Source: Deltaproteobacteria bacterium (GTDB taxonomy: Bacteria > Myxococcota > Kuafuiibacteriia > Kuafuiibacteriales > Kuafuiibacteriaceae). From it: a stretch of DNA of 64,000 nt. The notes beneath the pieces were generated by a model. It was not told the origin of the DNA. It worked only from the letters and a program-made list of their open reading frames with translations, and did not search any database. The position numbers and the translations under genes were made by a program. The stretch's first letter is position 1, and the number at the start of each line of letters is the position of its first letter. Of the stretch, positions 2,500-53,996 are shown piece by piece. Location: NCBI GenBank assembly GCA_016703535.1, contig JADJBV010000002.1:2177721-2241720 (forward strand). The letters are read 5' to 3'.

Positions 2500-4329
2500 T
2501 TAGCCGTTCGACAAGAGCGCGTAGGCCATCGCCGCCGCCAAGGACAGGCCAAGGGCCACCGCGGTGAAGCCGAAGACGCGATAGGAGATGGCCCAAACCA
2601 AGGACGGCGGGGCCTCCATGACCAACTCGCCGAGGCGGCCTTCGGCCTGGAGCCGCTTCCACTGCTCCGGGCGCTCCTCCCGCAGCTCCTCCTCCGAGAT
2701 CCGGCCGTCGAAGATCACCGTGTCCATCGGGAACTTCTCGGGTCGGAAGTGCGTGTTGAAGAAGTGCACGGTGAAGATGAAGCCGGTGGCGAGGAGGGCC
2801 TCGTCCGAGTGCACGATGGTCGCCAAGTTGAAGAACCACCCCGGCACCAGGTGAGCGGCGGCCTCCGGGAACCAGAGCATGAGCCCACTCAGGCCGATGG
2901 CGAACATGCCCCAGAACACGGCCAGGAAGTCGAACTTCTCCCAGTAGGTCCATCGATCGAAGCTGGGCCGCGGCCCTCGGAAGGTGAACCAGCGGAACAT
3001 CGCGATGATGTCCCGAAGGTCGCGCAGGTTGGGGAACAGCGAGTCCGGTCCCCAGAGCCGAGCCCACCAGCTGCCGCCGGGGCGTTGGCGATCGAAGAGG
3101 AAGCGGAAGCTCATCCCCAACGCGACGATGAAGTACCCAAAGGTGATCACCGCGGCGCTGTGGTGGATGGCCCGGGCCCGGTCTGGTCCGCCGACCCAAC
3201 CCATCAGCGTGTGGCCCCAGCCGGTGCCGCTGAACTTCAGCGGCAGGCCTGTGAACGCCAGGGCGAGGAAGCTGACCACCACCACCAGGTGGAGCCCGAT
3301 CTGCACCGGGGTGAAGCGACGATAGGTCTTGCCGTGGGCGCTGGGACGGGGGACCGGGGGCGTCGGGTTGTTGCGGCGTTCGACGAATGCGCGCAGGGCC
3401 CACAACGCTGAGTGCACCCAGAAGAAGAAGAAGGTGCCGACCAGCAGCGAGGTCATTCCGATCCGGGTCCAGTACAACGCCGGGCTCTTCACCCGGTCGC
3501 CGTCTTCGGCGTGGGGGATGAACTCCACGAAGGAGGAGGTGGCGCCGGCGTGGCACTGGCCGCAGGTCGCGACCAGGTGGTTCGGGGAGACGCTGGACTC
3601 GGGATCTTCGGCCTTCCGCACCTCGTGTGAGCGGTGGCAGTCAGCGCAGCCCGCGACCTTCTCCGGGTAGCCGAGCCTCACGTTTTTGCCGTGAAAGCTC
3701 TGGAAAAAGGTCTCGCCGGCGATCCAGGTGACCTCGTTTTTCTCCATCTTCTCCCGATCGTCGTGGCACTCGAGGCAGGCCATGGTGTGGAAGGCGCGCC
3801 CTTTTTCATCGTTGTCGATCTTGGCCACGGTGTGGGTCGCGTGACAGTCGGTGCAGGTTGGTGCGTCGAAGTGGCCTTCCTTCAGGGCGGCGTAGTGGGT
3901 CGAGGCGAAGTAGGGCGCCTGGCGTGAGTGGCACCCGGCGCAGGTCTCGGCGGTCCTGAGCTTGTCGCCCTTGTGTGACTTGAGGGTGTGGATGTCCGAG
4001 TGGCAGCCCACACAACCCGCCGGGAGTCGCTCGCTGTTGTGGATGCTTCCTTCGTGTTGCTCCGCCTCCTTTTCGTGGCAGCGGGCGCATTCGGTCGAGA
4101 CGAAGGCCGCGGCACACTGCTGATCGCCGGAAGTGGGCGCCGCTTGGCTGTCGTCCTTCTGGTGGCAGGCGGTGCAGGTGAGATCAGCGTGGACCGAAAC
4201 GTCGTAGCGTTGCCCCGGCACCTGCTCCTCGTGGCAGGTCAAGCAGGCGCTGGTCCCCTGCGCCGCCATCGCAACGCTCGGAGAGACCAGGAGCTGGGCG
4301 AGGAGCAAGGTGCGGGTGGCGGTAGACAT
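2500..4329 (-). CDS. CbcL-like quinol:periplasm oxidoreductase. An N-terminal periplasmic 9-heme c-type cytochrome is fused to a C-terminal HydC/FdnI-like diheme cytochrome-b membrane domain.
   Basis: 609 aa. A signal peptide is followed by nine CxxCH motifs (CLTCH, CTACH, CARCH, CVGCH, CAGCH, CTDCH, CLECH, CADCH, CGQCH). About 280 aa of polytopic membrane sequence with conserved His residues (HLVVVVSFLALAFTGLPLKF, HHSAAVITFGYF, VHSDEALLATGFIFTVHFFNTHF) is typical of Ni/Fe-hydrogenase or formate-dehydrogenase b-type subunits. Order and heme count match Geobacter CbcL. It is the last gene of the minus-strand operon, 13 nt after the upstream gene. Confidence 0.8.
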   Translation of the reverse strand: MSTATRTLLLAQLLVSPSVAMAAQGTSACLTCHEEQVPGQRYDVSVHADLTCTACHQKDDSQAAPTSGDQQCAAAFVSTECARCHEKEAEQHEGSIHNSERLPAGCVGCHSDIHTLKSHKGDKLRTAETCAGCHSRQAPYFASTHYAALKEGHFDAPTCTDCHATHTVAKIDNDEKGRAFHTMACLECHDDREKMEKNEVTWIAGETFFQSFHGKNVRLGYPEKVAGCADCHRSHEVRKAEDPESSVSPNHLVATCGQCHAGATSSFVEFIPHAEDGDRVKSPALYWTRIGMTSLLVGTFFFFWVHSALWALRAFVERRNNPTPPVPRPSAHGKTYRRFTPVQIGLHLVVVVSFLALAFTGLPLKFSGTGWGHTLMGWVGGPDRARAIHHSAAVITFGYFIVALGMSFRFLFDRQRPGGSWWARLWGPDSLFPNLRDLRDIIAMFRWFTFRGPRPSFDRWTYWEKFDFLAVFWGMFAIGLSGLMLWFPEAAAHLVPGWFFNLATIVHSDEALLATGFIFTVHFFNTHFRPEKFPMDTVIFDGRISEEELREERPEQWKRLQAEGRLGELVMEAPPSLVWAISYRVFGFTAVALGLSLAAAMAYALLSNG

Positions 4330-4342
4330 AAATGTGGTCTCC

Positions 4343-5521
4343 TCAACTGCACAGACCAGCCGCTCGCCGAGCCGTCTTCAGCTTGATGCGTGTCTGGTAG
4401 GAGTCCTTCGGGAAGGCGTCGAGTACGCTGAGCGGCGGCCGCGCCCAGTCGAAGTGGGGCAGGTCCGCGACGGGCAGGAACACCTCTCTCCAGTCGGAGA
4501 GGCCGTGCTCGAGCACGTAGAGGTTGGTGACGCCCTCCATCTTCAGCCGCTTCCAGGCCCGGGCCGCGACCTCTGGGTCATCGCTGATCAAGATGACGAC
4601 GCCGTTGACGGGGAGTTGATTGAGCTGAAAGCGCAGGCCGGGCTCGAGCAGCGCGTCGTATTGGACGTTCTTCGACCCGGCCAGGTGGAAGGTCTCAAAG
4701 GCCTCGGGTGCACGTAGGTCGAGGGTCACGAGCTTCACCGAGGCGTCGTTCCAGGTCTTCACGTACTCGAGGGGGTGCACCTGTTCCTCGCGCCGTTCGA
4801 GGAGCTCCTGGTATTGATCACCAAGCCGCGCCCACTTGTCCTCGGGGGTCATTTCTCCCTTGCTCCAGATGAAAAGCGCCAGGGCCAACGCCGAACCCGC
4901 CGCCGCGACGTACCGCGGGTTCTGCGGAGCCCACCGGACCGGCGCCCCCGCCATGAACGCCTCGGCCCTTTCGGCCGCATAAAAGAGGATCAGGGCCAAC
5001 GCGGTGACCCCCACGACCGTGGCCCCGATCGACCAGCCGAGCCAGTCCGAGACCAGGAGACGTTCGGTATACGACGAGTTCCAGAAGGGTTCGTACAGAG
5101 ACACGGTCTCGGCGAAGATCCCGGCGCCGACGATCGTCCCGACCAAAAAGAGCAGGCCGTCGATCTTGAAGCTGGCCGCCGACACCGCCGAGGTCCCGGG
5201 GCAATAACCGCCCACGACGAACCCGACGCCCATCACCAGACCGCCCACGATCCCCGGCCAGAGGTAGGTCTGGTTGACGAAGATCTTCGAGAAGTCGAGG
5301 TACCCGAGGGAGGCCGCGAGGAAGATGAGCAAACAAGCGGTCAAGATGCCGCTGAACATCGTCTTGAGCACGGTCATGTCGCGGAAGTAGAACTGGGAAG
5401 CGAGCTTCTTCGCGTTCCCGAAGCCCGCCAACTCCAGCACCACGCCGAAGCCGACCCCGATCAGGGCCGAGACCAGGTAGACGAGCCATTTACCATTTGC
5501 CGTGAGATCGAGCGGGAGCAT
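4343..5521 (-). CDS. YeeE/YedE-family sulfur (thiosulfate) transporter half fused to a C-terminal rhodanese-like domain
   Basis: The ORF track gives 4343..5605. I prefer the internal start MLPLDLTANGKW (track-derived 5521), which sits 12 nt after the upstream gene. The membrane part has the YeeE/YedE signature GGYCPGTS. The C-terminal ~130 aa is a rhodanese fold (DLRAPEAFETFHLAGSKNV...VVILISDDPEVAARAW). The catalytic Cys position appears substituted (ISDD), so it may be an inactive rhodanese. Confidence 0.75.
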   Translation of the reverse strand: MLPLDLTANGKWLVYLVSALIGVGFGVVLELAGFGNAKKLASQFYFRDMTVLKTMFSGILTACLLIFLAASLGYLDFSKIFVNQTYLWPGIVGGLVMGVGFVVGGYCPGTSAVSAASFKIDGLLFLVGTIVGAGIFAETVSLYEPFWNSSYTERLLVSDWLGWSIGATVVGVTALALILFYAAERAEAFMAGAPVRWAPQNPRYVAAAGSALALALFIWSKGEMTPEDKWARLGDQYQELLERREEQVHPLEYVKTWNDASVKLVTLDLRAPEAFETFHLAGSKNVQYDALLEPGLRFQLNQLPVNGVVILISDDPEVAARAWKRLKMEGVTNLYVLEHGLSDWREVFLPVADLPHFDWARPPLSVLDAFPKDSYQTRIKLKTARRAAGLCS

Positions 5522-5532
5522 AACTTGTCTCC

Positions 5533-6051
5533 TCAGTTCCAGAGCCGACGGACGAACCAGGCCAACGCGTAGGCGCCCAGGAAGACCGAAAACATGAAGG
5601 CCCACGAGCCAAGGGAGAGCACCGCGCCACCACTCAGCGCCTGCCCCGACGTGCAGCCCCGGGCCAAACGCGCGCCGTAACCCATGATCAGCCCTCCCAG
5701 GACGGCCAAGGCCAGACGTTTGGCTTTCCCGACCCCCGGGCCGGCGATCACCTCGAGCTTTTGCCGTCGGTGGAGGCGGGCCGAAAGGGCGCCCCCGAGG
5801 AGGGTGCCGAGGAGCATCATCACGCTCGAGTGATCGAGCGCGTGTCGATCGCCGCCGGCCATCGCCGCCAGATAACCGACCCGATCGACGTGGGACTGGG
5901 CCACGGTCGCCACCATCGAGGCCTCGATGCGGCTGATCGCACCCGAGGCGCCGAGCCCGCTGTGGGTCAGCGCGAAGGCCGCGAAGAGCACGATCCCAAG
6001 GAGTACACCCGCCGCGTAGGGGTTCATGAACTTGCTTGCATCAGTCTTCAT
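5533..6051 (-). CDS. YeeE/YedE-family sulfur transporter half (small subunit)
   Basis: The ORF track gives 5533..6291. The upstream 80 codons are Arg/Pro junk that overlaps the neighbouring gene. I place the start at MKTDASKFMNPYAAGVLLG (6051), 173 aa. It is a polytopic membrane protein with the YeeE/YedE motif RGCTSGQALSG. It overlaps the octaheme cytochrome stop by 11 nt. Confidence 0.7.
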   Translation of the reverse strand: MKTDASKFMNPYAAGVLLGIVLFAAFALTHSGLGASGAISRIEASMVATVAQSHVDRVGYLAAMAGGDRHALDHSSVMMLLGTLLGGALSARLHRRQKLEVIAGPGVGKAKRLALAVLGGLIMGYGARLARGCTSGQALSGGAVLSLGSWAFMFSVFLGAYALAWFVRRLWN

Positions 6052-7480
6052 AACGAATCCCTCCCGCGGGGTCTCGCTCGTAGCCGAGCGCCTTCCAGTC
6101 GAGGCGGCCCTTGGGGCCGTGGCAGTCTTGGCAAACCAGCGCCTCTTTGGCCGGCGCGACCATGTGGGTGATGGGCCAGTACATATGGGTCTTGGTGAAG
6201 TCGAACTCGCCGCTGTAGGGCAGGCCGGCGGTCGCCATCCCCTTCTTCGCCGCGGCGGCCCAGTCGAACTGGGTCCAATATCCGCCCTCACCGCTGGTGA
6301 TCGGAGGGATCAGGATCTTGTTGATCGGATCCCAAATCTGTTTGGCCCGGTGGATCTTGAAGGGCCACAACTTGGCCTTTGGATCGTCGCGGCCACCGAG
6401 CGGTTGGTTCATGGCCTGATCATCGCTGGTGACGGGATCGCCCATCAGATAACGATCCATCTTCCCGTTGTACCAGGCGTACTCCGGGCGAACCTCGCCG
6501 TCGTAGCGGAACTCTCCTTTGATCTTGAGATACTCGTGGGTCGAGTCCTGGCGCGCCTGGTCGCCGGCCTTGGACCAATCCCAGTCCATCTTGGTCGGGT
6601 ACTTTCGAGCGAAGGCGGGGACGTGGCAGGTCTGGCAGGCCAGGCGATCGAGGTGTTTGTTTAGCACCGCGTCCTTGTGCGGATTTCCGCTGTGGCACTT
6701 GTCGCAGCCGAAGCGGGCCGGGTGAGAGGCCTCGCTGTAGGTCGCGTTCATCTTCCCGGGCACCACGTGTCCGTGGGCTTCGTGGCAGTCCGTGCATTGG
6801 AAGTTGAGCTTGCCCATGTGCACGTCGAGTTCCTCGTTGGGGTTGAGCAGCGAGTCATCGAGGTCGCCGTGTTTGACGCCCATTCCTCCTCCGCCGTTGA
6901 AGTGGCAGCTCCCGCAGTTGTCGCGGCCGGGGGCCCGGACGCTGCCCGCTGCGGCGGCGAGGTCGACCTGTTTGCCGGGGAGGCCGCCCTTCTCTTTGGC
7001 GTAGCCTCCGGAGCCGTCGTGGCAAGCGAGACAGTCGACGTTTTCTTGTCGGGTGAAGTCGAAGTTGTCGTCGGTCCACCCGTAGCCGGCGTGGCACTTG
7101 GTGCAGGACGCCCAGTTCCCGGACACGCTGATGCAGAAGTTGTTGATCAGGTTCTTCTTCCCGATCGGGATCGACTTCCCATCCCGGATCGCGTCCCCCG
7201 ACAACCAGGTCCAATGGGCCGTCTGCATGACCTCCTTGGCGGATTCGGGGTGGCAGGAGAGGCACTTCTGGGTCACCTCCGGCCCGGTAGCGATCTTCTC
7301 CTTGAAGAAGGCGGTGTGATCGAGGTGCGGCTTGGCCCGGTCGGCGAGGGGGTTTCGGGGCGGGGTCGAGATCGCCGTCGAGAGGTGGCTGCCGGGCGCG
7401 GGTTGGGTCGGCCGGGCAGAGATGAGGAGGCCAGCCCCCCCCGCGGCCAAGGCCCCCAAGATGAGCGCTCGGTGTTTCAT
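6041..7480 (-). CDS. Octaheme c-type cytochrome, tetrathionate-reductase (OTR) family
   Basis: Start at MKHRALILGALAAGGAGLLISARP (signal peptide); the track ORF extends to 7549. Eight CxxCH motifs are present (CLSCH, CTKCH, CLACH, CGSCH, CTDCH, CDKCH, CQTCH, CQDCH) in ~480 aa. Conserved OTR-like blocks include NFCISVSGNWASCTKCH and GKLNFQCTDCHEAHGH. It is the first gene of the minus-strand operon. Confidence 0.75.
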   Translation of the reverse strand: MKHRALILGALAAGGAGLLISARPTQPAPGSHLSTAISTPPRNPLADRAKPHLDHTAFFKEKIATGPEVTQKCLSCHPESAKEVMQTAHWTWLSGDAIRDGKSIPIGKKNLINNFCISVSGNWASCTKCHAGYGWTDDNFDFTRQENVDCLACHDGSGGYAKEKGGLPGKQVDLAAAAGSVRAPGRDNCGSCHFNGGGGMGVKHGDLDDSLLNPNEELDVHMGKLNFQCTDCHEAHGHVVPGKMNATYSEASHPARFGCDKCHSGNPHKDAVLNKHLDRLACQTCHVPAFARKYPTKMDWDWSKAGDQARQDSTHEYLKIKGEFRYDGEVRPEYAWYNGKMDRYLMGDPVTSDDQAMNQPLGGRDDPKAKLWPFKIHRAKQIWDPINKILIPPITSGEGGYWTQFDWAAAAKKGMATAGLPYSGEFDFTKTHMYWPITHMVAPAKEALVCQDCHGPKGRLDWKALGYERDPAGGIRYED

Positions 7481-7581
7481 GCCCATGCTCCAATGCATCG
7501 GCAACACCACTCGTAACTCGATGAAATCACGATGTGACTTGTGCCACACGGGTCGATGGTGCTACGTTTTGTCGCACCGAC

Positions 7582-8981: not shown

Positions 8982-10298
8982 TTAGTCGTGGGTCTCGAAG
9001 ATGAAGGGGTAGGTCACCACCACCACACCGCCGCCTTTGGGGGCGGGGAACTTGAGGGAACGCATCACTTGGGTCAGGCAGGACTCGACCTTGTTGTTGC
9101 CGAGGCTGGTCTCTTTTAGGCTCGCGTCGGCGACGGCGCCGTTGGGGGCGATGGTGAAGTAGACCGCTGCTTTGCCGGCCAGGTTGGGATCGGCTTGGAG
9201 CTCCTTTTCGTAGCAGAACTTGAAGCGGGGCAGGGCGCTCCGTATCACCCGGGCGATCTCGTCTTTGCTGAGGCCGTCGCCCATCTGGATCGGTCGACCG
9301 CCGCCGCGAATGGCGGGGCCCCGCTTTTGGCCGGGGAGCCCCACGTCGATGCCCACGCCCGGGCCCGAGCCGGGGCCTCGCCCGACGCCGCCGATGCCCA
9401 AGGAACCTCCACCACCTCCGGCTTGGTGACCGCGGCTGCCCATGCCCCCGAAGCCGCCCGCGTCGGTGAGCTCTTGGCCGCGCAGTCCGCCCATGGCCAG
9501 GTTGAGGCCGGTGCCGAGGCCTCCCGATCCCAGGACGGTGGCGGCGGCGTTGCCCGGTAGAGACGCCAAGATGCCCAGCAGGCCGGCGCTTTTTGCGATC
9601 TTCGTGTTGGCGGCGACGGTGCTGGGATCGACCCGGGGTGCGCCGCGGTTTTTGGAGGGGGCGGCGTCTTTGAGGGGCGCCTTTTTCCCGAGGCGTCCTT
9701 CCTTGCCAGGCTGGCCTCCGGCGGACTTTTTGGGGGCCGGAGGCTCCTTCTGGAGTTGCACCATCCTCACGTGCCCTCGGCTCCTCCACAACTCCTCGAT
9801 CGTCCGGGCGGACCTCGGCGTGATCCAGGCGGTGGCGATCAAGAAGGCGTGCACCAACATCGAGATCGCGAACAAACGCGCCATCGGCCAGTCGGTGAAC
9901 GCGGCGGCCCGGCCGCGGGTGGCGTGCCCTTCGACCATCGCGAAGTGGTACCCGAGCCCCTCGAAGTTGTAGCTCAGGCTCTGTTTCGGGCCCAAGGTCT
10001 GGACCCGCTCGTGGCTCAGTCGTTCGGTCCGCCGCGGATCCTCCCGGTGGAGTTCGGCGCCGGCCGGTACGGAGATCTTGGCCCCGCCCGAAAACCGGTC
10101 GGCCAAAACTCGGGCCTCACTTTGCCCGGGGATCTGCAAGTTGCCTTGCAAACTCCCCAAGGTGATCGGCCCCAGGTGTTCGAGTTGGGCGGCGTCGAGC
10201 CGACCGTCGCCCCAAGTGATGGAGACAAAAAGGGCTTGCTGATCATCGGCGGGGGTGGCGCCGCGAGGGGCGAGGGGTCGGCGGAAGGGACGAGTCAT
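8982..10298 (-). CDS. AgmX/PglI-like membrane protein: N-terminal cytoplasmic domain, one TM helix, Gly-rich linker, TonB-C-like C-terminal domain
   Basis: 438 aa. A TM segment (LFAISMLVHAFLIATAWI) is followed by a long Gly-rich region (GGFGGMGSRGHQAGGGGGSLGIGGVGRGPGSGPG). The C-terminal ~90 aa (SKDEIARVIRSALPRFKFCYEKEL...VVVVTYPFIF) resembles the myxobacterial gliding-motility AgmX/PglI / TonB C-terminal fold. Confidence 0.55.
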   Translation of the reverse strand: MTRPFRRPLAPRGATPADDQQALFVSITWGDGRLDAAQLEHLGPITLGSLQGNLQIPGQSEARVLADRFSGGAKISVPAGAELHREDPRRTERLSHERVQTLGPKQSLSYNFEGLGYHFAMVEGHATRGRAAAFTDWPMARLFAISMLVHAFLIATAWITPRSARTIEELWRSRGHVRMVQLQKEPPAPKKSAGGQPGKEGRLGKKAPLKDAAPSKNRGAPRVDPSTVAANTKIAKSAGLLGILASLPGNAAATVLGSGGLGTGLNLAMGGLRGQELTDAGGFGGMGSRGHQAGGGGGSLGIGGVGRGPGSGPGVGIDVGLPGQKRGPAIRGGGRPIQMGDGLSKDEIARVIRSALPRFKFCYEKELQADPNLAGKAAVYFTIAPNGAVADASLKETSLGNNKVESCLTQVMRSLKFPAPKGGGVVVVTYPFIFETHD

Positions 10299-11864: not shown

Positions 11865-12389
11865 GTGGAGTCGAGTTCCCCGAAAAAAGCCCGAGGTCCC
11901 CTGGAGCGGGCCCTGATCGGCCGCCTGTCGTCGGACGGCGCGGGGGGATATCGGCTGGCGGAGCACGAGTGGCCCGGGTTGCGGCGGCTCTTGGACCAGA
12001 CTTTGGCCGGGCCCGACGCTTGGAGCGCGATCCGTCGTTGGCTTCAGCTGTCGGTGGCGATGGACGGGGCCTTGGCCTCACCCGAAGTGGGCCAGCGGAT
12101 GCGGCAACTCCTCCGAGAGGCGCCTGGGGGTGTGGCCCTGGTCCGCCGGCACCTGCTCAAGGTCGGCGCCATCGACGACGTCCGGGCCTTCTTGAAGAGT
12201 GAGGCCCGCAGCCAAACACCGACCGCGCCGATGCTCGATCGGCGACCGCCTCGGAACACCGTGCGCCTCTCTGAATTTTTGGATCTCGCGGGCGGGCAAG
12301 GCGTGCCCCGGGTCATTCGACGTGACCCAACCCGATGGCCGAGCCAGGACGGCTCGGAGAAAGACAGGATGTCATGGCCGAGGGAGTAG
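11865..12389 (+). CDS. Hypothetical protein with no recognisable domain
   Basis: 174-codon ORF with GC-rich third positions. It overlaps the next ORF by ~55 nt and the true end or start is uncertain. No motif was recognised. Confidence 0.35.
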   Translation: MESSSPKKARGPLERALIGRLSSDGAGGYRLAEHEWPGLRRLLDQTLAGPDAWSAIRRWLQLSVAMDGALASPEVGQRMRQLLREAPGGVALVRRHLLKVGAIDDVRAFLKSEARSQTPTAPMLDRRPPRNTVRLSEFLDLAGGQGVPRVIRRDPTRWPSQDGSEKDRMSWPRE

Positions 12390-13702
12390 GGCTGGGAGAC
12401 AACGATCGGACTCGGGTTGGGAGCGTCGAGGCCAAGGCCGAAACGCCAGCGGTGGACGCCGCTGACGCCGACCGGATCTCAGCCGCGGCTGACGCGGTGC
12501 CGACCGAAAGCTTGACCAAAGCGGGGCTCGACGTCGCGGGCGGTGAACTTGCGGTCGATGGCATGGATGGGATGCAAAATGACGATCCCGCCAAACGCGC
12601 CGCCGAAAATCCGGCCGGGATCTTGGCCGATCCGACGAAGACGCCGGAGCAGCTGGGGGCCCACCTCCGGGGCCTGAGCACCGCGGAGCTCACCAACACC
12701 GTGAAGGGCATCGACACCCCGGAGCTGGGATATGGCGCCAACGTTCGGCCTGAAGGCTGGAAGGCGCTGAGCACCGAGGTCGATCGCCGGTTTGGTGAGG
12801 CGCTGCGGAATCAAGTGGGCAATCAGGACCTGGCCAACCTGTCCCAAGAGTCGGTGCGTCAACCTGGCTTGCAAAAGAGCTGGAACGAAAAGACCTGGCG
12901 CGAAGTGTCCGGATTCCAGGATCAGTACGCCCCCGAAAACCAGCAGTTTCATCGGACCTTGCAGCACACCACCCAAATGCGGAACGCCATCGTCAACGGC
13001 GGCCTGCGCCCGGCTGACATGACGAACGGTGAGCTGCTGAAGAAGGTCGGCGAGATCCCGGGGATGCGGACCGCCAGCGACGTGATGAGTTTGGCCGGTA
13101 TCCCAGGGATGTTGGCGTCGATGGCCGGCGAAGGAAAGATCCAGGATCGGCTGGACGAACTCGGCAAGCGGATGCAGGACGGCCGTTTGCCGGCGATGAA
13201 CGCGGACACAGGAGAAGGCAGCCCCGAAGCTCGGGCCGCCGGGACTGCCATCGGCGTGGCCCAGCTGGCCTCTGCCCTCAACCCTCGCAACCTGTTGAGC
13301 AAAGGGCTTGGCTCCTTGTTTGGTGGCGGCGCCAGGATGACCGCCTCCGAAGCGCGGATCAGCGGCGTGTTGCGGGAGGCTGCCACTCGCAAAGGCAACT
13401 TCGGACTTGGCACCTTGACCCGCAGCGAGGCGTTGCAGGCCGGCGAAGCTTGGGTGGGCCCGGGTTTCATCAAGTCGATCGGTCAAGGCGGCGAGACGAT
13501 CTTGACCAGCGCCGACGGGCTTCGTCGTTATCGCGACTTCATGCCGAAGAGTGGTCAGTTCCCCGGCGTGCAGGCCAACCTGGAGTCACTCCAGCTGGGC
13601 CAGGCCTTCACTGGGCTGCAACGTTCGCGCAACTGGTCGGTGAATGGGCACATCACCTTGCAGCCCGATCCCACGTTGTTTCAGCGGCTCTGGCCTTTCT
13701 GA
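12335..13702 (+). CDS. Hypothetical 455-aa protein with no recognisable domain
   Basis: Long ORF without a signal peptide or TM segment. It is rich in Gly/Ala/Leu, and nothing matches a family I know. An alternative start is at 12374 (MAEGVGL). Confidence 0.5.
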   Translation: MAEPGRLGERQDVMAEGVGLGDNDRTRVGSVEAKAETPAVDAADADRISAAADAVPTESLTKAGLDVAGGELAVDGMDGMQNDDPAKRAAENPAGILADPTKTPEQLGAHLRGLSTAELTNTVKGIDTPELGYGANVRPEGWKALSTEVDRRFGEALRNQVGNQDLANLSQESVRQPGLQKSWNEKTWREVSGFQDQYAPENQQFHRTLQHTTQMRNAIVNGGLRPADMTNGELLKKVGEIPGMRTASDVMSLAGIPGMLASMAGEGKIQDRLDELGKRMQDGRLPAMNADTGEGSPEARAAGTAIGVAQLASALNPRNLLSKGLGSLFGGGARMTASEARISGVLREAATRKGNFGLGTLTRSEALQAGEAWVGPGFIKSIGQGGETILTSADGLRRYRDFMPKSGQFPGVQANLESLQLGQAFTGLQRSRNWSVNGHITLQPDPTLFQRLWPF

Positions 13703-13954
13703 TCCTGTCGTTCACCACGGATCTTCGGGTGGGGGGCTTGCATCTTGGGGTGCGGCTCCTTTAGTTTGATCACGTGCGAGCCGCGCTCTTCACAACCGCG
13801 ACGACTACCGCCATGGGCGGCTGGGTCGTCGTGGGCACGCGGGCTCGCTAGTCAGCCAACTCCGCTAACCTTCACCCCCAACCCGCCCGGCGATCGCACG
13901 GGGCGGGTGGAGTTTGGCTGTACCCTACGATCGTCGGGCCCACTGGAGTTTCCG

Positions 13955-15157
13955 ATGTTCGATCATGAAGATCACCGAGAGCTGGCCAAGCGGCTGGATC
14001 TATTTCACTTCGAAGAGGTCGCGCCGGGCATGGTGTTTTGGCACCCCCGGGGCTGGGCCGTTTACCGCCGGCTGGAAGAGATCGTGCGGCGGAGATCCCA
14101 ACGAGAGTTGTTCGAGGAGGTCCGGACGCCCCAGCTCTTGCGCCGGGCGGTCTGGGAAGAGAGCGGCCACTGGCAACACTTCAAGGAGGGGATGTTCGCC
14201 CTCCTGGACGGCGCCGAAGACGCCGCGGTGAAGCCGGTGAGTTGCCCCGGCCACGCGCACCTGGTGCGTCGAAGGGCTCCGGGGTATCGGGCCCTGCCGA
14301 TCCGCATCTTCGAGCTGGGCCTGGTGCACCGAGACGAGCCGAGCGGCGCGTTGCAAGGCCTCTTGCGCTTGCGACAGTTCACGCAGGATGACGGCCACGT
14401 GTTCTGCCGGCCCGAACAAGCCGAAGCCGAACTCTTGCGGTTTTTGAGTGGAGTGGCCCCGTTTTATCAGGCCTTCGGCTTCGAGAAGGTCCGCTTCGCG
14501 CTTTCTTTGCGGCCCGAGTCCCGGGCCGGCGCCGAGGCCGCCTGGGATTGGGCCGAAGGTGTGTTGAGCAAGGTGCTCGACGGCCTCGGCCACGGCTTTT
14601 CGGTGCAGCCGGGTGGTGGCGCCTTTTACGGCCCGAAGGTGGAGGTGGTGTTGTCCGATCGGCTGGGTCGGGAGTGGCAATGTGGCACGATCCAGCTGGA
14701 CGTGGTGCCCGAGCGTTTTGGTCTGGAGTATGTGGAGGCCGACGGGAGCCGAAAGCCGCCGGTGATGTTGCACCAGGCCCTCTTCGGATCGCTGGAGCGA
14801 TTTATCGCCATGGTCCTCGAGCAACACGGGGCACGGCTGCCAGCGTGGCTTTCGCCCGAGGCGGTGGTGCTCCTCCCCATTGGCCCCGAGGCCGCCGGGC
14901 AGGTGTCCCGCTGGGCCGCGGACCTCCGGGATCAGGGCGTGGCCGCGGCGGTCGACGCGAGGGAGGAGTCCTTGTCCCGACGGATCGCCGAGGCCCACGA
15001 TCGGGGCGTCTCCGAGGTTTGGGTGGTCGGTCCCGCCGAGCTCGCCGCGGGTATGGTCTCCCGGCGCCGGGCCGGTGCCTCCGAGGTACGCCCCTTCGCC
15101 GAGTTGGCACCCGAGCTCATCGAACGTTGTCGACCCCCCGCGGTGGTCTACGGCTGA
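13955..15157 (+). CDS. Threonyl-tRNA synthetase paralog with a class-II catalytic core and anticodon-binding domain only. The N-terminal TGS and editing domains are absent.
   Basis: The start MFDHEDHRELAKRLDLFHF..APGMVFWHPRGW aligns with the start of the ThrRS catalytic domain (E. coli DHRKIGKQLDLYH..APGMVFWH). ThrRS-specific zinc ligands and motifs are present: VSCPGH, motif 2 HRDEPSGALQGLLRLRQFTQDDGHVF, HQALFGSLERF and motif 3 GGAFYGPKVE. The C-terminal anticodon-binding domain is present. The track ORF 13745..15157 carries an upstream 70-aa junk extension. Confidence 0.8.
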   Translation: MFDHEDHRELAKRLDLFHFEEVAPGMVFWHPRGWAVYRRLEEIVRRRSQRELFEEVRTPQLLRRAVWEESGHWQHFKEGMFALLDGAEDAAVKPVSCPGHAHLVRRRAPGYRALPIRIFELGLVHRDEPSGALQGLLRLRQFTQDDGHVFCRPEQAEAELLRFLSGVAPFYQAFGFEKVRFALSLRPESRAGAEAAWDWAEGVLSKVLDGLGHGFSVQPGGGAFYGPKVEVVLSDRLGREWQCGTIQLDVVPERFGLEYVEADGSRKPPVMLHQALFGSLERFIAMVLEQHGARLPAWLSPEAVVLLPIGPEAAGQVSRWAADLRDQGVAAAVDAREESLSRRIAEAHDRGVSEVWVVGPAELAAGMVSRRRAGASEVRPFAELAPELIERCRPPAVVYG

Positions 15158-15763: not shown

Positions 15764-15849
15764 GCCGCCCCTCCTAAAGCCCAAGCCCCCACCAGTCCAG
15801 CCCCAGGTCCTCCCGCCCACCTCCCGCAGCCCCAAGCCTCATCCTCACG

Positions 15850-16135
15850 CCCGCAGCCTCACGCCTCAGCCCGACGCCTCAGCCCGACGCCTCAGCCTCA
15901 CGCCAAGCCCGACGCCTCACCCTCACGCCAACGCCTCAGCCCCCCGCCTCATCCTCAAGCCTCAGCGACACGCCTCATCCTCAAGCCTCAGCGACACGCC
16001 TCAGCCCCCCGCCTCATCCTCAAGCCTCAGCGACACGCCTCAGCCCCCCGCCTCAGCGACACGCCTCAGCCCCCCGCCTCAGCGACACGCCTCAGCCCCC
16101 CACCTCAGCCCCCGCCTCAGCCCCCCACCTCCCAC
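15850..16135. repeat. Tandem repeat array A: degenerate 13-nt period (CGCCTCAGCCCCC / CGCCTCAGCGACA) with a 26-nt super-unit GCCTCATCCTCAAGCCTCAGCGACAC in 3 copies
   Basis: Seen directly in the sequence. About 20 units with a C-rich plus strand. The G-rich minus strand has G5-6 runs spaced by CTGAGGC, which gives G-quadruplex potential. The region is non-coding and lies upstream of the DJ-1 gene. Confidence 0.7.
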
Positions 16136-16279: not shown

Positions 16280-16284
16280 GCCCC

Positions 16285-16535
16285 CCCGCAACCCACCTCA
16301 CGCAACCCACGCCCGCAGCCCACCTCACGCAACCCACCCCGCGCAACCCACCTTGCGAATCCACCGCCCCGCAACCCACCTTGTAAAGCCCAGCGCTCGC
16401 AACCCAACTTGCGAATCCACCTCGCGCAACCCAACTTGCGAATCCACCTCGCGCAACCCAACTTGCGAATCCACCGCCCCGCAACCCACCTTGCGAAGCC
16501 CAAGCGCCCGCAATCCACCTTGCGAACCAACAACC
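16285..16535. repeat. Tandem repeat array B: about 8-9 degenerate copies of a 25-29-nt unit CGCAACCCA(A/C)CTTGCGAATCCACC(T/GCCC), each with a small palindrome CGCAA-N6-TTGCG
   Basis: Seen directly. The units are contiguous with no unique spacers. Every unit carries a 5-bp inverted repeat with a 6-nt loop. The array lies downstream of the ABC permease gene, which runs convergently on the minus strand. Confidence 0.7.
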
Positions 16536-45434: not shown

Positions 45435-47249
45435 TCATCGCTCCTGGATCTCGACCTCGGCGCCTTCGACGTGGAACTCGACCCGACGGTTTTGGGCCCG
45501 ATTGTCTGGGCTGTTGTTGGGGACCAGCGGTTGAGTTTCGCCGAAGCCCGCGGGCTCTAGCAGACCTTGGTCCACGCCTTGGGCGACCAGGTAAGCGACC
45601 ACACTCTTGGCCCGCTTCTCCGAGAGGCGCAGGTTGCCCGAGTCGTTGCCGACGTCGTCGGTGTGGCCTTCGACCCGAACCTTGGTCAACTTGTTCCGCT
45701 TGATCACCGCGGCCACGTCGTTGAGGAGCGCGTAGGAGCGGGCCTCGATCACCGCCGAGCTGGTCTTGAAGTAGACCTTGTCCAAGATCTCGATCCGCTC
45801 ACCCTTCAGCACCGCCAGCTGCTTCTTGGCGCAGCCGCCGTTCTCCAGGACCCCCGGCTCGTCGGGGCACTGATCCAGGCGATCGGCGATGTTGTCGTGG
45901 TCTCGATCGGTGTCGGGGCAGCCCTTGTTCTCCTTGACCCCCGGCGCCGAAACGCACTTGTCGGCCACGTCGAGCACGCCGTCGGCGTCGTTGTCCGGAT
46001 CCGGGCAGCCGTCTTGGTCCTCCCACTGGTCCACGTCTTCGGCGTCGTTCGGGCACTGATCGGCCTTGCCGCGCAGACCGTCGCCGTCGGGGTCGGGCAC
46101 CTCGTCGGGGCAACCGTCCTGATCTTCGTGTTCGTTTTGGGTCTCGGGCTCGAGGCGACACCGATCGGCGGTGTCCGGGATCTGGTCGCCATCGTCGTCG
46201 GGATCGACGCAGCCGTCTTGGTCTTCGAACTCGTCCTTGTCCTCCGCCACGTCCGGGCAGGTGTCGTCCGGATCGTTCAAGCCGTCGCCGTCGCTGTCGG
46301 TGGGCGGGGCCCAGGTGTAGCGCAGGCCGAGCAGGGCCCGGAAGTCGGGGGTGCCGTAGGCCTTGGTGAGGCCCACGCCGCCCGCGGCGTAAGCGGTGAG
46401 GGGGATCGGGAAGTCGTAGGCCAGGCCAAAGTCGAGTTCGCTGGCGACCGCCTCCGCGGACTCGAAGGCCAGATCCAACACCGTGGCCATCGAATAGGAG
46501 AGGTCCAGCTCCAGCGGCGGGCCGCCCACCTCCGCCAGCCGGGCGCCGAGGCCGACCTTCAAGAAGAACTCGTCATCGACGGCGAGGTTCACGAAGTCGA
46601 CCTTGTTGCGCATTCGAAAGCCGACGTTGCCGGCCAAGCGCATCAGGCCAAAGCTGCGAGAGGCCAAGAGGGCCGGGCGGAAGCCCACGGTGTCGTCGCC
46701 GAAGTAGGCCTCTTCGGTGGCGGTGGGCAAAGACACCGCCGCCATCACCGCCAGGTCCAGGCCCTGATCGGCCTGGCGCAAGATGCGGATCTTGGGGATC
46801 AGCCTCAGATCTCCGAGGCCAGCGCTGCTCAACTCCGGGAGGGTCCCGACCACCCCGGGCAAGAGGTCACTGCGGCTCTGGCCGAGGATCACCGGCAAGG
46901 CCAAGCCCAGCTCCACCCACTCGAACAGGGCGATGGCCCCGCCGACCTCACCACCCCAACGGGAGGCGACCAGGGAACCTTGGCGTTCGTCGTCGCTCTC
47001 TCGATAGAGCACCAAGGGGTCGTTGGCGTAGCCCATCCACAACCAAACGTTCCACGACAAATGCCGTGGAACACCGGCCCACTCGGTGTCCAGAATGCCG
47101 CCCCGATCGATGGTCAAGGCGAAGCGTTCGATGCCGAAGCTCCTTCGCTCCGGCACGTTCTGGGCGTTGGCCTGCTGGGCTGCCGCGCCGGTCGCCAACA
47201 GGAACACCAGCGCCGTGGTGACCCGCCGCCGTAGGCCTGAGGTGCGCAC
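45435..47249 (-). CDS. OmpA-family protein module: signal-peptide-like N-terminus, beta-rich domain, thrombospondin-type-3 (TSP3) Ca-binding repeats and a C-terminal OmpA peptidoglycan-binding domain. It lies in the same continuous frame as the giant ORF below.
   Basis: A candidate GTG start at 47249 gives VRTSGLRRRVTTALVFLLATGAAAQQANAQ (n-region, h-region, AXA). TSP3 repeats follow (DSDGDGLNDPDDTCPD, EDQDGCVDPDDDGD, repeated). The C-terminal OmpA domain is VYFKTSSAVIEARSYALLNDVAAVIKRNKLTKVRVEGHTDDVGNDSGNLRLSEKRAKSVVAYLVAQGV...NRRVEFHV. No stop codon separates it from the upstream module. Confidence 0.55.
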   Translation of the reverse strand: MRTSGLRRRVTTALVFLLATGAAAQQANAQNVPERRSFGIERFALTIDRGGILDTEWAGVPRHLSWNVWLWMGYANDPLVLYRESDDERQGSLVASRWGGEVGGAIALFEWVELGLALPVILGQSRSDLLPGVVGTLPELSSAGLGDLRLIPKIRILRQADQGLDLAVMAAVSLPTATEEAYFGDDTVGFRPALLASRSFGLMRLAGNVGFRMRNKVDFVNLAVDDEFFLKVGLGARLAEVGGPPLELDLSYSMATVLDLAFESAEAVASELDFGLAYDFPIPLTAYAAGGVGLTKAYGTPDFRALLGLRYTWAPPTDSDGDGLNDPDDTCPDVAEDKDEFEDQDGCVDPDDDGDQIPDTADRCRLEPETQNEHEDQDGCPDEVPDPDGDGLRGKADQCPNDAEDVDQWEDQDGCPDPDNDADGVLDVADKCVSAPGVKENKGCPDTDRDHDNIADRLDQCPDEPGVLENGGCAKKQLAVLKGERIEILDKVYFKTSSAVIEARSYALLNDVAAVIKRNKLTKVRVEGHTDDVGNDSGNLRLSEKRAKSVVAYLVAQGVDQGLLEPAGFGETQPLVPNNSPDNRAQNRRVEFHVEGAEVEIQER

Positions 47250-53200: not shown

Positions 53201-53996
53201 CCGTGGAGGTGCGGTCGAACTGGCCGTCTTGGTTGAGGTCGCAGATCAAGTGATAGGTTCCGGTGACGTCGGTGGTGAAGCTGAAGAGGCCCGTCGAGGT
53301 CCCGGGGACGATGGCGCTGCAGGTCTCCGCCGCGCCCACCTGGGTGAAGGTGAAGTTGCTGACCGCCGGCACCAAGGGGTTGTAGGTCGCGAGGGTCGGG
53401 GGGTTGAGGTAGATCTGGTAGAGCGGCGTGAAGGTGTTGCCGGCGCTGGGCACGCTGCGGCCGGCGTTGGCGCCGTTGACGCCCGTCTGGTTCATGCCCA
53501 TGTTCCAGATGAAGCCCTGGAGTCCATTGAAGCGAATGTCGATGACCGCGTTGCGGTTGGCAGCGCCGCCGTTCACCAAGGCGTAAAGTGAGGTGTTCAT
53601 CGCCGATGCGCCGCCGGCGTAGGTGCCGGTGTCGAAGTACCAGCGGGTCGACCACAACCGCCCGCCCGCTTGCACTGGGTTGTTGACCCGCAGGTCCCAG
53701 GCGCCGCCTTGGTCGTTGGTCAAGGTCACCCGATAGGCGCCGTTGCCGTTGCCGTTCAGGTTGGCGGTGGCGCCGTTGCCCAAGGTGGCGATCTGGGTGC
53801 CGGCCGGATTGAAGATCCGGGCCTGGCCCGCGCCGCTCCAAGTGATGGTCTCGACGGTGGCGTCCAAGATGTCGACGTTCAACACCGTGGTGTTGACCAT
53901 GTCCGATTGGGTGCCGAGGGTCGCGGTGCCTTCGGCTCGGGCGATCAGCGGAGCCAACAAAAGGGAGGCGAAGATCGACGTGGCAATTCGCGACAT
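47250..53996 (-). CDS. Giant secreted repeat adhesin module (about 2250 aa): signal peptide, unknown beta-rich N-terminal domain, ~5 cadherin-like/Ig-like repeats, ~9 large TSP3 Ca-binding repeat modules, then a MYXO-CTERM-like sorting signal
   Basis: Signal peptide MSRIATSIFASLLLAPLIARAEG. Cadherin-like repeats (VTVTAVNDTPVANNNAVTVAEDGTV..., about 100 aa each) lie around 51.0-52.2 kb. Dozens of TSP3 motifs (DTDGDGLxDxxE, DSDDDGxxDG) lie around 47.4-51.0 kb. The frame ends with GCGCSTSHGPTPGPLGSVAVGLLLLAFGVFGRRR (Cys-rich GCGC, TM helix, RRR). The reading frame then continues into the OmpA module without a stop. Confidence 0.55.
47262..47375 (-). other. MYXO-CTERM-like tripartite sorting signal (GCGCS / ~13-aa spacer / TM helix / RRR) located internally in the 8.56-kb ORF
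   Basis: Translation GLAGGGCGCSTSHGPTPGPLGSVAVGLLLLAFGVFGRRR was verified codon by codon on the minus strand. A TAG lies 2 codons downstream in the +1 frame. Confidence 0.6.
47400..51000. repeat. Intragenic tandem repeats: about 9 copies of a ~420-bp module encoding TSP3 repeat units (DSDxDGLxDGTELGVTTP..DTDVAAGxFVxDADPxTTTDPLDxDTDxGGVxDGxEDxNxNGRxDxGExDPNL)
   Basis: The periodicity is visible in both the nucleotide and protein sequence. The antisense shadow ORFs 47346..50900 and 51618..53591 come from the same repeats. Confidence 0.7.

Follow-up and report, generated by a model that had tools for sequence, protein, structure and literature searches.

The locus described here raises the question of what a bacterium does with a threonyl-tRNA synthetase (ThrRS) that lacks its editing half. 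The gene concerned, a truncated thrS, lies at positions 13955 to 15157 of a 64-kb stretch of Myxococcota DNA (contig JADJBV010000002.1), which we analyzed as a whole and refer to as the window. ThrRS editing is regarded as near-universal in free-living bacteria, and the comparisons below bring together hundreds of clusters of editing-less enzymes. The most informative new result is a conserved, putative threonine-leader element that lies ahead of truncated thrS genes in two phyla.

Architecture of the truncated enzyme

The coding features of the gene are as follows.

13955..15157, + strand: coding sequence of the truncated thrS, ATG to TGA, 400 amino acids plus stop, N-terminus MFDHEDHRELAKRLDLFHF
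14213..14827, + strand: class II aminoacyl-tRNA synthetase (aaRS) core, Pfam tRNA-synt_2b (PF00587), residues 87-291, E=1.8e-39
14243-14245, 14396-14398 and 14771-14773, + strand: codons of the zinc ligands C97, H148 and H273, from the alignment with Escherichia coli ThrRS
14864..15109, + strand: anticodon-binding domain, Pfam HGTP_anticodon (PF03129), residues 304-385

A preliminary description of this DNA took the gene for a stand-alone ThrRS without the TGS and editing domains, and the Pfam, NCBIfam and tblastn searches bear this out. Neither TGS (PF02824) nor tRNA_SAD (PF07973) gave a Pfam match in the 400-residue protein. The thrS equivalog model TIGR00418 scored 394.1 bits, above its cut-off of 383.65, with the match covering model positions 170-547 of 565 and leaving positions 1-169 unmatched. 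When full-length E. coli ThrRS was used as a tblastn query, only its residues 243-609 were found in the window (at 13970-15067, 42.5% identity, E=7e-101), and residues 1-242 had no match in any frame throughout the 64 kb. That this query can reveal the N-terminal domain is shown by about 45 canonical thrS loci, where it finds the domain in frame and directly upstream of the core.

The top solved-structure matches of the protein were bacterial ThrRS (including E. coli 1qf6, 1evk and 4hwo), and the yeast mitochondrial enzyme MST1 (3ugq) was also among the matches. Residues 5-374 align with residues 242-612 of 1qf6, which agrees with the earlier remark that the open reading frame (ORF) starts where the catalytic domain starts. 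The retention of the zinc ligands, of motifs 2 and 3 and of the anticodon-binding domain was confirmed by residue mapping and by Pfam. The ligands C97, H148 and H273 correspond to C334, H385 and H511 of E. coli ThrRS; R126, E128, Q144, D146 and Y225 correspond to R363, E365, Q381, D383 and Y462, and G226, K228, Q242, Q247 and R282 to G463, K465, Q479, Q484 and R520, all of them conserved. The catalytic and zinc residues do not vary between the window protein and the 33 truncated relatives, drawn from three groups, with which it was compared, and the motif 2 and motif 3 arginines are among the residues kept throughout. E362 and R370 are the counterparts of E. coli E600 and R609, which we take to be anticodon-recognition residues in the ThrRS-tRNA structure. 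ATP hydrolysis assays show that the engineered E. coli core of residues 242-642, which has been crystallised (1evk, 4hwo), is an active catalyst (PMC11252418). By these alignments, the window gene is a genuine ThrRS that has the catalytic core and the anticodon-binding domain and naturally lacks the editing half.

Distribution of the truncated family

Truncated ThrRS of about 400 residues form at least 120 clusters in Myxococcota. The best 120 database matches of the window protein are 394-473 residues long (119 of them at most 434), have the two domains only and are annotated as threonine--tRNA ligase; the names among them include Sandaracinus, Myxococcus, Corallococcus, Pyxidicoccus, Archangium and Polyangiaceae. 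The closest relatives have 91% and 77% identity to the window protein, and the best species representative in GTDB, from a Polyangiaceae metagenome-assembled genome, matches partially at 66% identity. When a single genome was scanned for each species, members were also found in M. xanthus, Citreicoccus, Nannocystis, Byssovorax, Kofleriaceae and five complete Sorangium chromosomes. Members of the family begin with M-x(2-4)-DHR, at the linker helix that opens the catalytic module, and the anticodon-binding domain varies more across the family than the core does.

The family extends beyond this phylum. With the Burkholderia arboris protein as the query, at least 120 further clusters (392-448 residues) were returned from Burkholderia (vietnamiensis, ubonensis, pseudomultivorans), Paraburkholderia (including P. 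xenovorans), Trinickia, Caballeronia, Inquilinus and Acidiphilium. A tblastn search of PLSDB located truncated thrS on a 3.5-Mb replicon of B. arboris and on a 2-Mb replicon of Caballeronia, and the conjugative 582-kb plasmid pM7012 of Burkholderia sp. M701 has an annotated thrS of 402 residues that is of the truncated type. When 1.84 billion representatives were scanned in full with HMMER, the truncated proteins of myxobacteria fell into a single cluster at 50% identity, with other clusters of about 400 residues beside it. In a rough neighbour-joining tree, the deep branching of which is unreliable, the myxobacterial and the proteobacterial truncated clades are two separate tight groups beside the proteobacterial canonical ThrRS, and further clusters of about 400 residues are scattered around both. 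The window gene belongs to a widespread family of bacterial ThrRS without an editing domain that occurs in Myxococcota, in Burkholderiaceae and in other Proteobacteria. We found no published study of this family, whose members are entered in databases as generic threonine--tRNA ligase, although two of the groups that carry it are of great interest to biotechnology.

Gene order around the truncated thrS is conserved within the closest clade only. It runs from a winged-helix regulator through a 174-residue ORF and a 442-455-residue ORF to thrS, followed by a DJ-1/PfpI gene and a MacB/FtsX exporter on the opposite strand, and the neighbourhoods in Sandaracinus and M. stipitatus are wholly different.

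Among the more distant sequences are several ThrRS-like clusters of about 400 residues (for example P0125, P0152, P0197, P0131 and P0122) that are 43-48% identical to the window protein. The source of P0197 is a Myxococcaceae metagenome-assembled genome, so some genomes may hold more than one type of truncated ThrRS. In another protein, P0159 (815 residues), about 400 residues without an assigned domain follow an N-terminal ThrRS core.

A threonine-rich leader precedes the gene

The 210 nt or so upstream of thrS had been set aside in the preliminary description as low-complexity junk. They are instead the most conserved part of the locus, and they contain a threonine-rich upstream open reading frame (uORF) and hairpins. 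Aligned with its counterparts in the relatives of 91% and 77% identity, the region hardly varies; its identity to the more distant of the two is 88%, compared with 75% for the coding sequence and 72% for the upstream ORF. Its features in the window are listed below.

13738..13743, + strand: -35-like box TTGCAT, a TTGAC/TTGCA-type hexamer common to relatives
13762..13767, + strand: -10-like box TAGTTT, seen in the sequence, ending 6 nt ahead of the leader start codon
13774..13851, + strand: leader ORF, GTG...TAG, 25 codons, MRAALFTTATTTAMGGWVVVGTRAR, the threonine-rich uORF common to the family
13774..13914, + strand: match to covariance model R1 (see below), 56.3 bits, E=7e-10, the only match in the 64-kb window
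13792..13809, + strand: run of threonine codons ACA ACC (GCG) ACG ACT ACC, seen in the sequence
13796..13834, + strand: hairpin A, formed by the threonine codons (5' strand) and GUCGUCGUG (3' strand), with a CCGCC/GGCGG hairpin inside it
13882..13907, + strand: hairpin B, CCCGCCC...GGGGCGGG, a conserved, terminator-like helix
13945..13948, + strand: Shine-Dalgarno sequence GGAG, seen in the sequence, 6 nt ahead of the thrS ATG

Of 39 loci, 31 have a -35-type box (TTGAC, TTGCA, TTGAT or TTGCC) at a distance of 30-45 nt ahead of the leader start codon; its first base is most commonly exactly 36 nt from that codon, and across loci the -10-like element ends about 6-7 nt before it. A generic promoter scan with stricter rules gave nothing at the site of the -35-like box in the window. 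The promoter spacing implies that the uORF is leaderless or nearly leaderless, a prediction for which there is a precedent in the leaderless leader peptides ahead of aaRS genes in Streptomyces lividans (PMC8079986).

Five of codons 7-12 of the leader ORF specify threonine. In 36 of 37 rows (the window and 36 family loci), a uORF of 19-28 codons with 4-9 threonines per 10-residue window lies upstream of thrS. At least five threonines per 10 residues were present in 35 of the tested rows, against 13 of 1080 random 300-nt windows from the same loci (1.2%). The uORF is present in all four Burkholderiaceae loci, and the peptides of Sorangium (MSSRLTATTTTTTRSGGTGLVCVQ) and M. xanthus (MSFVITTTTTGTTTRFGGRGTVRVTW) serve as examples. 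The sole row in which no threonine-rich uORF was called, L013, has a weak match to the covariance model further upstream (E=0.031). Elsewhere in the window, other short threonine-rich ORFs occur only out of frame inside coding regions.

The uORF is itself part of a structure. In the window, hairpin A has a folding energy of -32 kcal/mol (z=-3.4), and none of 200 shuffled sequences was equally stable. The two-tier topology recurs in all 18 lineages folded, with differing sequences and z-scores down to -4.0; the threonine codons on the 5' strand are partnered by downstream valine, glycine or tryptophan codons, and the stem encloses a CCCGC/GCGGG hairpin. About 100 nt past the start of the ORF, a GC-rich hairpin (CCCCGCC...GGCGGGG) is present in 18 of 19 lineages examined. 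The helix of hairpin B is 85.7% paired across 48 sequences, with changes on both sides at seven of its 10 pairs, and RNAalifold recovers this terminator hairpin with compensatory changes at its base. In the window, the minimum-free-energy fold extends hairpin B by pairing 13850-13863 with 13909-13923.

A clear U-tract follows the terminator hairpin at L037, L033, L039, L047, L093, L097 and L098. Several myxobacterial lineages have it, as do the four Burkholderiaceae loci without exception (B. arboris, for example, has GCCCCGCCGGAAACGGACGGGGCUUUUUU), and in Myxococcaceae it is weak or absent. Judged by its sequence, the hairpin with U-tract of these relatives is a textbook intrinsic terminator. 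The motif (A/G)CGGAG is kept ahead of the thrS start codon in relatives of the window gene, and in many lineages the motif GCNCCGUCCGG has complementarity to this Shine-Dalgarno region as well as to the terminator's 3' arm, which suggests an additional layer of translational control.

The leader is a candidate RNA family

To describe the leader as a unit, a covariance model, R1, was built from 17 myxobacterial leaders (alignment A5) and run against a search space of 1.5 Mb, made up of the window and 90 loci on both strands. One coding-strand match was found immediately upstream of each truncated thrS locus searched, including loci outside model building; the weak matches were those of L032 (E=0.2) and of L013 and L022 (about 0.03-0.04). 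Four Burkholderiaceae loci, from a phylum absent from the training set, matched at 42-65 bits, and about 45 canonical thrS loci gave no match at E<0.4. The leader thus defined is about 130-140 nt long, has 41 instances at E<0.05 and is a candidate new RNA family. A known RNA family was rejected as its identity, as Rfam yielded no match at its gathering threshold, nor when E values up to 10 were allowed.

In the R1 alignment, which is itself fitted to the model, 74.9% of cells are paired, compared with 35-48% when the partners are slid, both sides change at 16 of 26 pairs, and the observed values were not reached by any of 500 shuffles. When the leader ORF was aligned with MAFFT alone, RNAalifold recovered almost nothing, because the register of the hairpins shifts between lineages, a shift that R1 overcame. 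The leader is specific to truncated thrS in both phyla. Its presence in both truncated clades argues for common ancestry or for transfer of the whole cassette between them.

A proposed attenuation switch

We propose that the locus is a cassette in which a shortage of Thr-tRNA(Thr) induces an auxiliary, editing-less ThrRS through ribosome-mediated attenuation, a reading that we favor with modest confidence. A sigma70-type promoter would start transcription at or beside the start codon of the 25-codon leader ORF. With Thr-tRNA(Thr) plentiful, the ribosome would traverse the leader and the downstream GC-rich hairpin would form, causing termination in relatives and possibly, in many lineages, pairing of an anti-Shine-Dalgarno segment with the Shine-Dalgarno sequence, so that little thrS mRNA or translation would result. 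With Thr-tRNA(Thr) scarce, whether through threonine starvation or through failure or inhibition of the main ThrRS, the ribosome would stall at the threonine codons of the leader and hairpin A would open. The invariant GCGGG freed in this way could pair with the invariant CCCGC of the 5' arm of the terminator, which would allow read-through and synthesis of the enzyme. The N-terminally truncated ThrRS (deltaN-ThrRS) would then charge tRNA(Thr) through its zinc-dependent site, with no clearance of Ser-tRNA(Thr) in cis. The data establish the domain architecture, the intact catalytic residues, the family, the leader ORF and the hairpins with their specific link to truncated thrS; from these we infer the mechanism of the switch, the inducing signal, the activity of the enzyme and the presence of a canonical thrS in the genome.

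In 96.6% of cells, the bases allow the pairing on which the switch would depend, between GCGGG (3' arm of the inner hairpin) and CCCGC (5' arm of the terminator). Several observations weigh against the proposal. The antiterminator shows no covariation, because its two segments never vary, and its duplex energies are no better than those of shuffled sequences. In equilibrium folds under a stalled-ribosome constraint, the terminator was lost in only 13 of 31 leaders, and in the window clade the U-tract after hairpin B is weak (UGGAGUUUGG). The AlphaFold model of the window protein is mediocre (mean predicted local distance difference test score, pLDDT, of 69.7), and the rough neighbour-joining tree does not join the myxobacterial with the proteobacterial truncated clades. 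No full-length thrS turned up for Myxococcota, either in the 64 kb of the window or among the matches of a profile built from full-length ThrRS. Seven canonical full-length thrS loci, all from Burkholderiales (L048, L050, L051, L052, L060, L062 and L064), also have a threonine leader about 90-200 nt upstream, a different one (MTPRTTTTTFTGN and variants), together with a strong terminator (AAGCGCGGC...GCCGCGCUUUUU). This canonical leader is unrelated in sequence to that of the truncated genes and is not matched by R1, and we found no description of it in the searchable literature. Its existence means that an attenuator alone cannot show that the truncated gene is a second copy. The E. coli pheST operon, which encodes a sole-copy aaRS, is likewise attenuated.

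Auxiliary copy or sole enzyme

Among the alternatives, the one that survives best is that the truncated gene is the sole housekeeping ThrRS of the organism, and perhaps of Myxococcota, with the threonine leader providing homeostatic feedback and with editing supplied in trans or absent. The breadth of the family in this phylum (Myxococcus, Corallococcus, Pyxidicoccus, Sorangium, Nannocystis, Sandaracinus, Kofleriaceae and Polyangiaceae) speaks for it, as do the NCBI name threonine--tRNA ligase, the passed thrS equivalog cut-off and the threonine leader of canonical thrS in Burkholderiales. It is also favored by the lack of a full-length myxobacterial match: a profile made from four high-GC full-length ThrRS returned Acidobacteriota only. 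Furthermore, infC of M. xanthus DK1622 (MXAN_0581) stands alone, with no thrS upstream and no rpmI-rplT downstream (PMC6791715, supplementary table), in contrast to the usual order thrS-infC-rpmI-rplT.

Against a sole enzyme, Burkholderiaceae carry the cassette with the same R1 leader as an extra, on secondary replicons and, in one case, a conjugative plasmid, and the thrS loci sampled from Burkholderiales in the genome scan (about 15) are all full length. Because of this combination of plasmid or secondary-replicon location and full-length Burkholderiales thrS, the Burkholderiaceae cassette must, on the genomic evidence, be an extra copy. The neighbourhoods of the truncated family are variable and not of a housekeeping kind. 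Moreover, a phylum of large-genome, free-living bacteria without ThrRS editing would be unprecedented: the only free-living lineages that a review of the subject lists with a shortened, editing-less thrS are some archaea, which have ThrRS-ed, and in Mycoplasma the editing domain of ThrRS is kept in a degenerate, inactive form (PMC7373986). Swiss-Prot reportedly contains full-length ThrRS (SYT) entries for Myxococcus, Anaeromyxobacter and Sorangium. We conclude that the truncated gene is very probably an auxiliary copy and that its being the sole enzyme is unlikely.

Alternative functions of the enzyme

A bolder form of the auxiliary reading, possible but doubtful, is that the locus is a mobile "emergency charging" cassette, in which an inhibitor-insensitive minimal ThrRS confers inducible antibiotic tolerance by target replacement and permits mistranslation of threonine codons with serine. 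ThrRS inhibitors made by soil competitors would collapse the charging of Thr-tRNA(Thr), the cassette would respond, and an altered pocket would lower sensitivity to the inhibitor; the cassette would have spread through Myxococcota and Burkholderiaceae. The altered pocket refers to three positions (E. coli numbering). All 12 myxobacterial truncated members have M332V and V376L, all 10 proteobacterial members have V376A or V376T, and S488V is found in 20 of the 22 members of the two clades; in canonical enzymes, M332 is invariant and V376 is present in 23 of 24. That these substitutions could alter inhibitor binding is speculation. A one-residue deletion beside position 489 occurs in the window clade only.

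A role outside translation, such as the supply of Thr-tRNA or threonyl-AMP, the synthesis of diadenosine tetraphosphate (Ap4A) or regulation, has parallels in truncated aaRS paralogs that have acquired new roles (PMC4787780). The anticodon-binding domain is less conserved than the core, and the residue equivalent to E600 is replaced by aspartate in half of the proteobacterial members, both of which would fit such a role. However, all residues for the activation and transfer of threonine are invariant, including the motif 2 and motif 3 arginines, the window clade keeps the anticodon-binding domain with the counterparts of E600 and R609, and a leader that senses Thr-tRNA(Thr) would best fit a role in charging. 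A non-translational function is thus quite improbable.

The preliminary description likened the gene to immunity genes of the BorO/ObaO type. That it is a self-resistance gene of a ThrRS-inhibitor producer, linked to a biosynthetic gene cluster (BGC) of the borrelidin (BorO), obafluorin (ObaO) or vibriomycin type, seems to us very improbable. Possession of a second ThrRS is a known immunity strategy (PMC11252418; PMC13515044), myxobacteria and Burkholderia are prolific makers of natural products, and the clade-specific pocket substitutions M332V, V376L and V376A/T could be read in the same sense. On the other hand, no BGC was found among the annotated window genes or in the 8-10 kb or so around relatives, the neighbourhoods differ fully between genera, and conservation of a gene across a phylum is unlike cluster-specific immunity. 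ObaO is full length (catalytic domain at residues 241-637) and owes its resistance to G463S (PMC11252418), whereas at position 463 (Gly226 in the window protein) glycine is present in all 33 truncated and all 24 canonical sequences. Position 489 is valine in the window protein and methionine or leucine in relatives; it was rejected as a resistance marker, since methionine is also found in 11 of 24 canonical enzymes and L489M gives no resistance to obafluorin (PMC11252418). The analogy with immunity genes is thus unsupported, the "junk" label for the upstream region was wrong, and the parts of the preliminary description that stood are the architecture, the residues and the absence of a BGC in the window.

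The last alternative, a fragmented or frameshifted full-length thrS or a mis-assembly, can be dismissed: apart from the odd length of the gene nothing speaks for it, an identical 400-residue product is called on eight independent JGI and Logan contigs and its start is shared with at least 120 relatives (hundreds of relatives begin alike), which together exclude an artefact, and in addition no frame in the 64 kb encodes the N-terminal domain, a 70-codon in-frame upstream extension (from TTG 13745) brings no added Pfam domain, and a conserved promoter and leader lie directly upstream of thrS.

Comparison with known systems

The closest analogue of the enzyme, as far as sequence can tell, is the engineered deltaN-ThrRS of E. 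coli (residues 242-642; PDB 1evk, 1evl and 4hwo), which has the same boundaries to within a few residues and the same zinc site and motifs. That protein is a laboratory construct, whereas the form in the window is natural and conserved, has a regulatory leader of its own and is 42.5% identical to it. Dock-Bregeon et al. (cited in PMC4787780 and PMC7373986) reportedly found in 2000 that the E. coli core charges tRNA(Thr) and mischarges serine. Yeast MST1 also has no N-terminal editing domain and is the sole working enzyme of the mitochondrion; it differs from the window gene in being organellar, sole and free of leader-peptide control. The crenarchaeal pair of ThrRS-cat and ThrRS-ed (for example Aeropyrum pernix, 3a31) likewise includes a natural ThrRS without a cis-editing domain (PMC7373986). 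The archaeal type is different, however: the window protein matches 3a31 at 132 bits and NF003068 at 148 bits against a cut-off of 484, and the archaeal partner is a free-standing editing protein resembling D-aminoacyl-tRNA deacylase (DTD). In the 64-kb window, tblastn and Pfam revealed no editing-domain gene, and NF011500 (Ser-tRNA(Thr) hydrolase) scored 25 bits on the window protein.

Two groups of duplicated ThrRS also invite comparison. ObaO, BorO and the vibriomycin-linked ThrRS are second copies beside an existing ThrRS, as proposed here for the truncated gene. ObaO, the member compared, is full length, lies inside a BGC and has G463S, whereas the window gene is truncated, has no BGC in the window and keeps the glycine. 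The T2-type ThrRS (Anabaena thrS2 and the copies on Klebsiella and Thioclava plasmids) is a stress-linked duplicate with impaired editing that relies on the other copy (PMC4787780). A phylogenetic comparison with this type had been suggested at the outset. The type does not match, as T2 enzymes are full length, with a degenerate N2 domain that has an insertion, and lie in Zur or metal clusters, whereas the window gene has neither the N-terminal half nor metal-related neighbours and is preceded by a putative threonine-sensing leader.

On plasmids, 569 Klebsiella records in PLSDB match the ThrRS query, and pBio30 of K. pneumoniae carries a full-length second thrS (L095). It lies between genes for metal ABC transporters and paralogs of an M14 carboxypeptidase, of dihydroorotase and of hemB, and by its gene content this locus looks like a zinc-starvation paralog island. 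On the Thioclava plasmid (L096), thrS adjoins two hisI-like genes.

As for control, leader-peptide attenuators share a short uORF rich in cognate codons, followed by hairpins, upstream of the gene that they control; thrL-thrABC and pheM-pheST of E. coli are examples. In Streptomyces coelicolor, trpRS1 is an auxiliary aaRS that is induced as charging falls, and if the window gene is auxiliary, this is the nearest system to it in logic. Bacillus subtilis thrZ is a backup ThrRS gene under T-box control, silent until uncharged tRNA(Thr) builds up or ThrS becomes limiting; thrZ is full length and its T-box RNA binds tRNA directly, whereas the window gene is truncated and its leader would be translated. 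Leaders ahead of aaRS genes are described in S. lividans (thrL-thrS, trpL2-trpS, alaL-alaS and leuL2-leuS; PMC8079986), and a His leader lies upstream of hisS paralogs in Bacillus (PMC2965389). Of these, S. coelicolor trpRS1, B. subtilis thrZ and the His leader of the hisS paralogs would be the closest mechanistic analogues of the proposed switch. The window leader is unrelated in sequence and structure to the Thr_leader of Rfam; it is tied to truncated thrS and is apparently leaderless. The tRNA-mimic operator of E. coli thrS requires the N-terminal domain of ThrRS (PMC7373986), a domain that the window protein does not have.

If the proposal is correct, the cassette would offer a natural system in which to study when cells trade translational fidelity for charging capacity. 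It would also mean inducible intrinsic tolerance in Burkholderia, including spread by plasmids, to borrelidin, obafluorin and the synthetic ThrRS inhibitors under development, and a "duplicated aaRS" flag in genome mining of myxobacteria and Burkholderia need not signal an adjacent BGC.

Genomic surroundings

The window has a G+C content of 66.8%, and its gene content is typical of Myxococcota, with sigma54 activators carrying FHA domains, a Ser/Thr kinase, multihaem cytochromes and a large surface protein. No polyketide synthase, nonribosomal peptide synthetase or other BGC was found among its annotated genes (30 proteins were scanned with Pfam; several ORFs had no match or were outside the scan), as the preliminary description had said. 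Around relatives, no BGC was seen within the 8-10 kb or so examined, or less at contig ends. The BGC-free neighbourhoods in which genes were called are those of Sandaracinus, Myxococcus, B. arboris and Paraburkholderia; that of pM7012 is known through the annotation of its record only, and in Caballeronia two ORFs were scanned.

The two ORFs without domains (11865..13702) and the DJ-1/PfpI gene that had been reported to flank thrS do so. The ORFs at 11865-12389 (+) and 12335-13702 (+), as well as that at 8982-10298 (-), have no Pfam or PADLOC match, and these three are syntenic with thrS in the closest clade only (the window, P0001 and P0002). The first two, of 174 and 455 residues, overlap and lie downstream of a winged-helix (Trans_reg_C) regulator that has no receiver-domain match. 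An operon of thrS with the 11865..13702 ORFs was rejected, as the synteny is confined to the closest clade and thrS has its own promoter and leader.

Downstream of thrS, tandem repeats at 15827-16124 (13-nt unit, about 22 copies) and 16284-16528 (27-nt unit, about 9 copies) lie in the spacer of about 720 bp between the DJ-1/PfpI and MacB/FtsX genes. The same genes are 10 nt apart in the 77%-identical relative (L007), which indicates that the arrays are an insertion or expansion in the lineage of the window.

Further away, the gene at 45435-53996 (-) encodes a protein of 2853 residues with Big_9, cadherin-like, CshA and bacterial TSP3 repeats and a C-terminal OmpA domain, and its repeats produce many spurious threonine-rich ORFs in other frames. 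At 2500-7549 (-), a fusion of multihaem cytochrome c and cytochrome b561, a sulphur-transport/rhodanese protein and a second multihaem cytochrome (Cytochrome_cB, MtrC-like) are encoded, and a sigma54 activator follows this cluster on the opposite strand. A tRNA-Pro(GGG) gene is located at 2372-2448.

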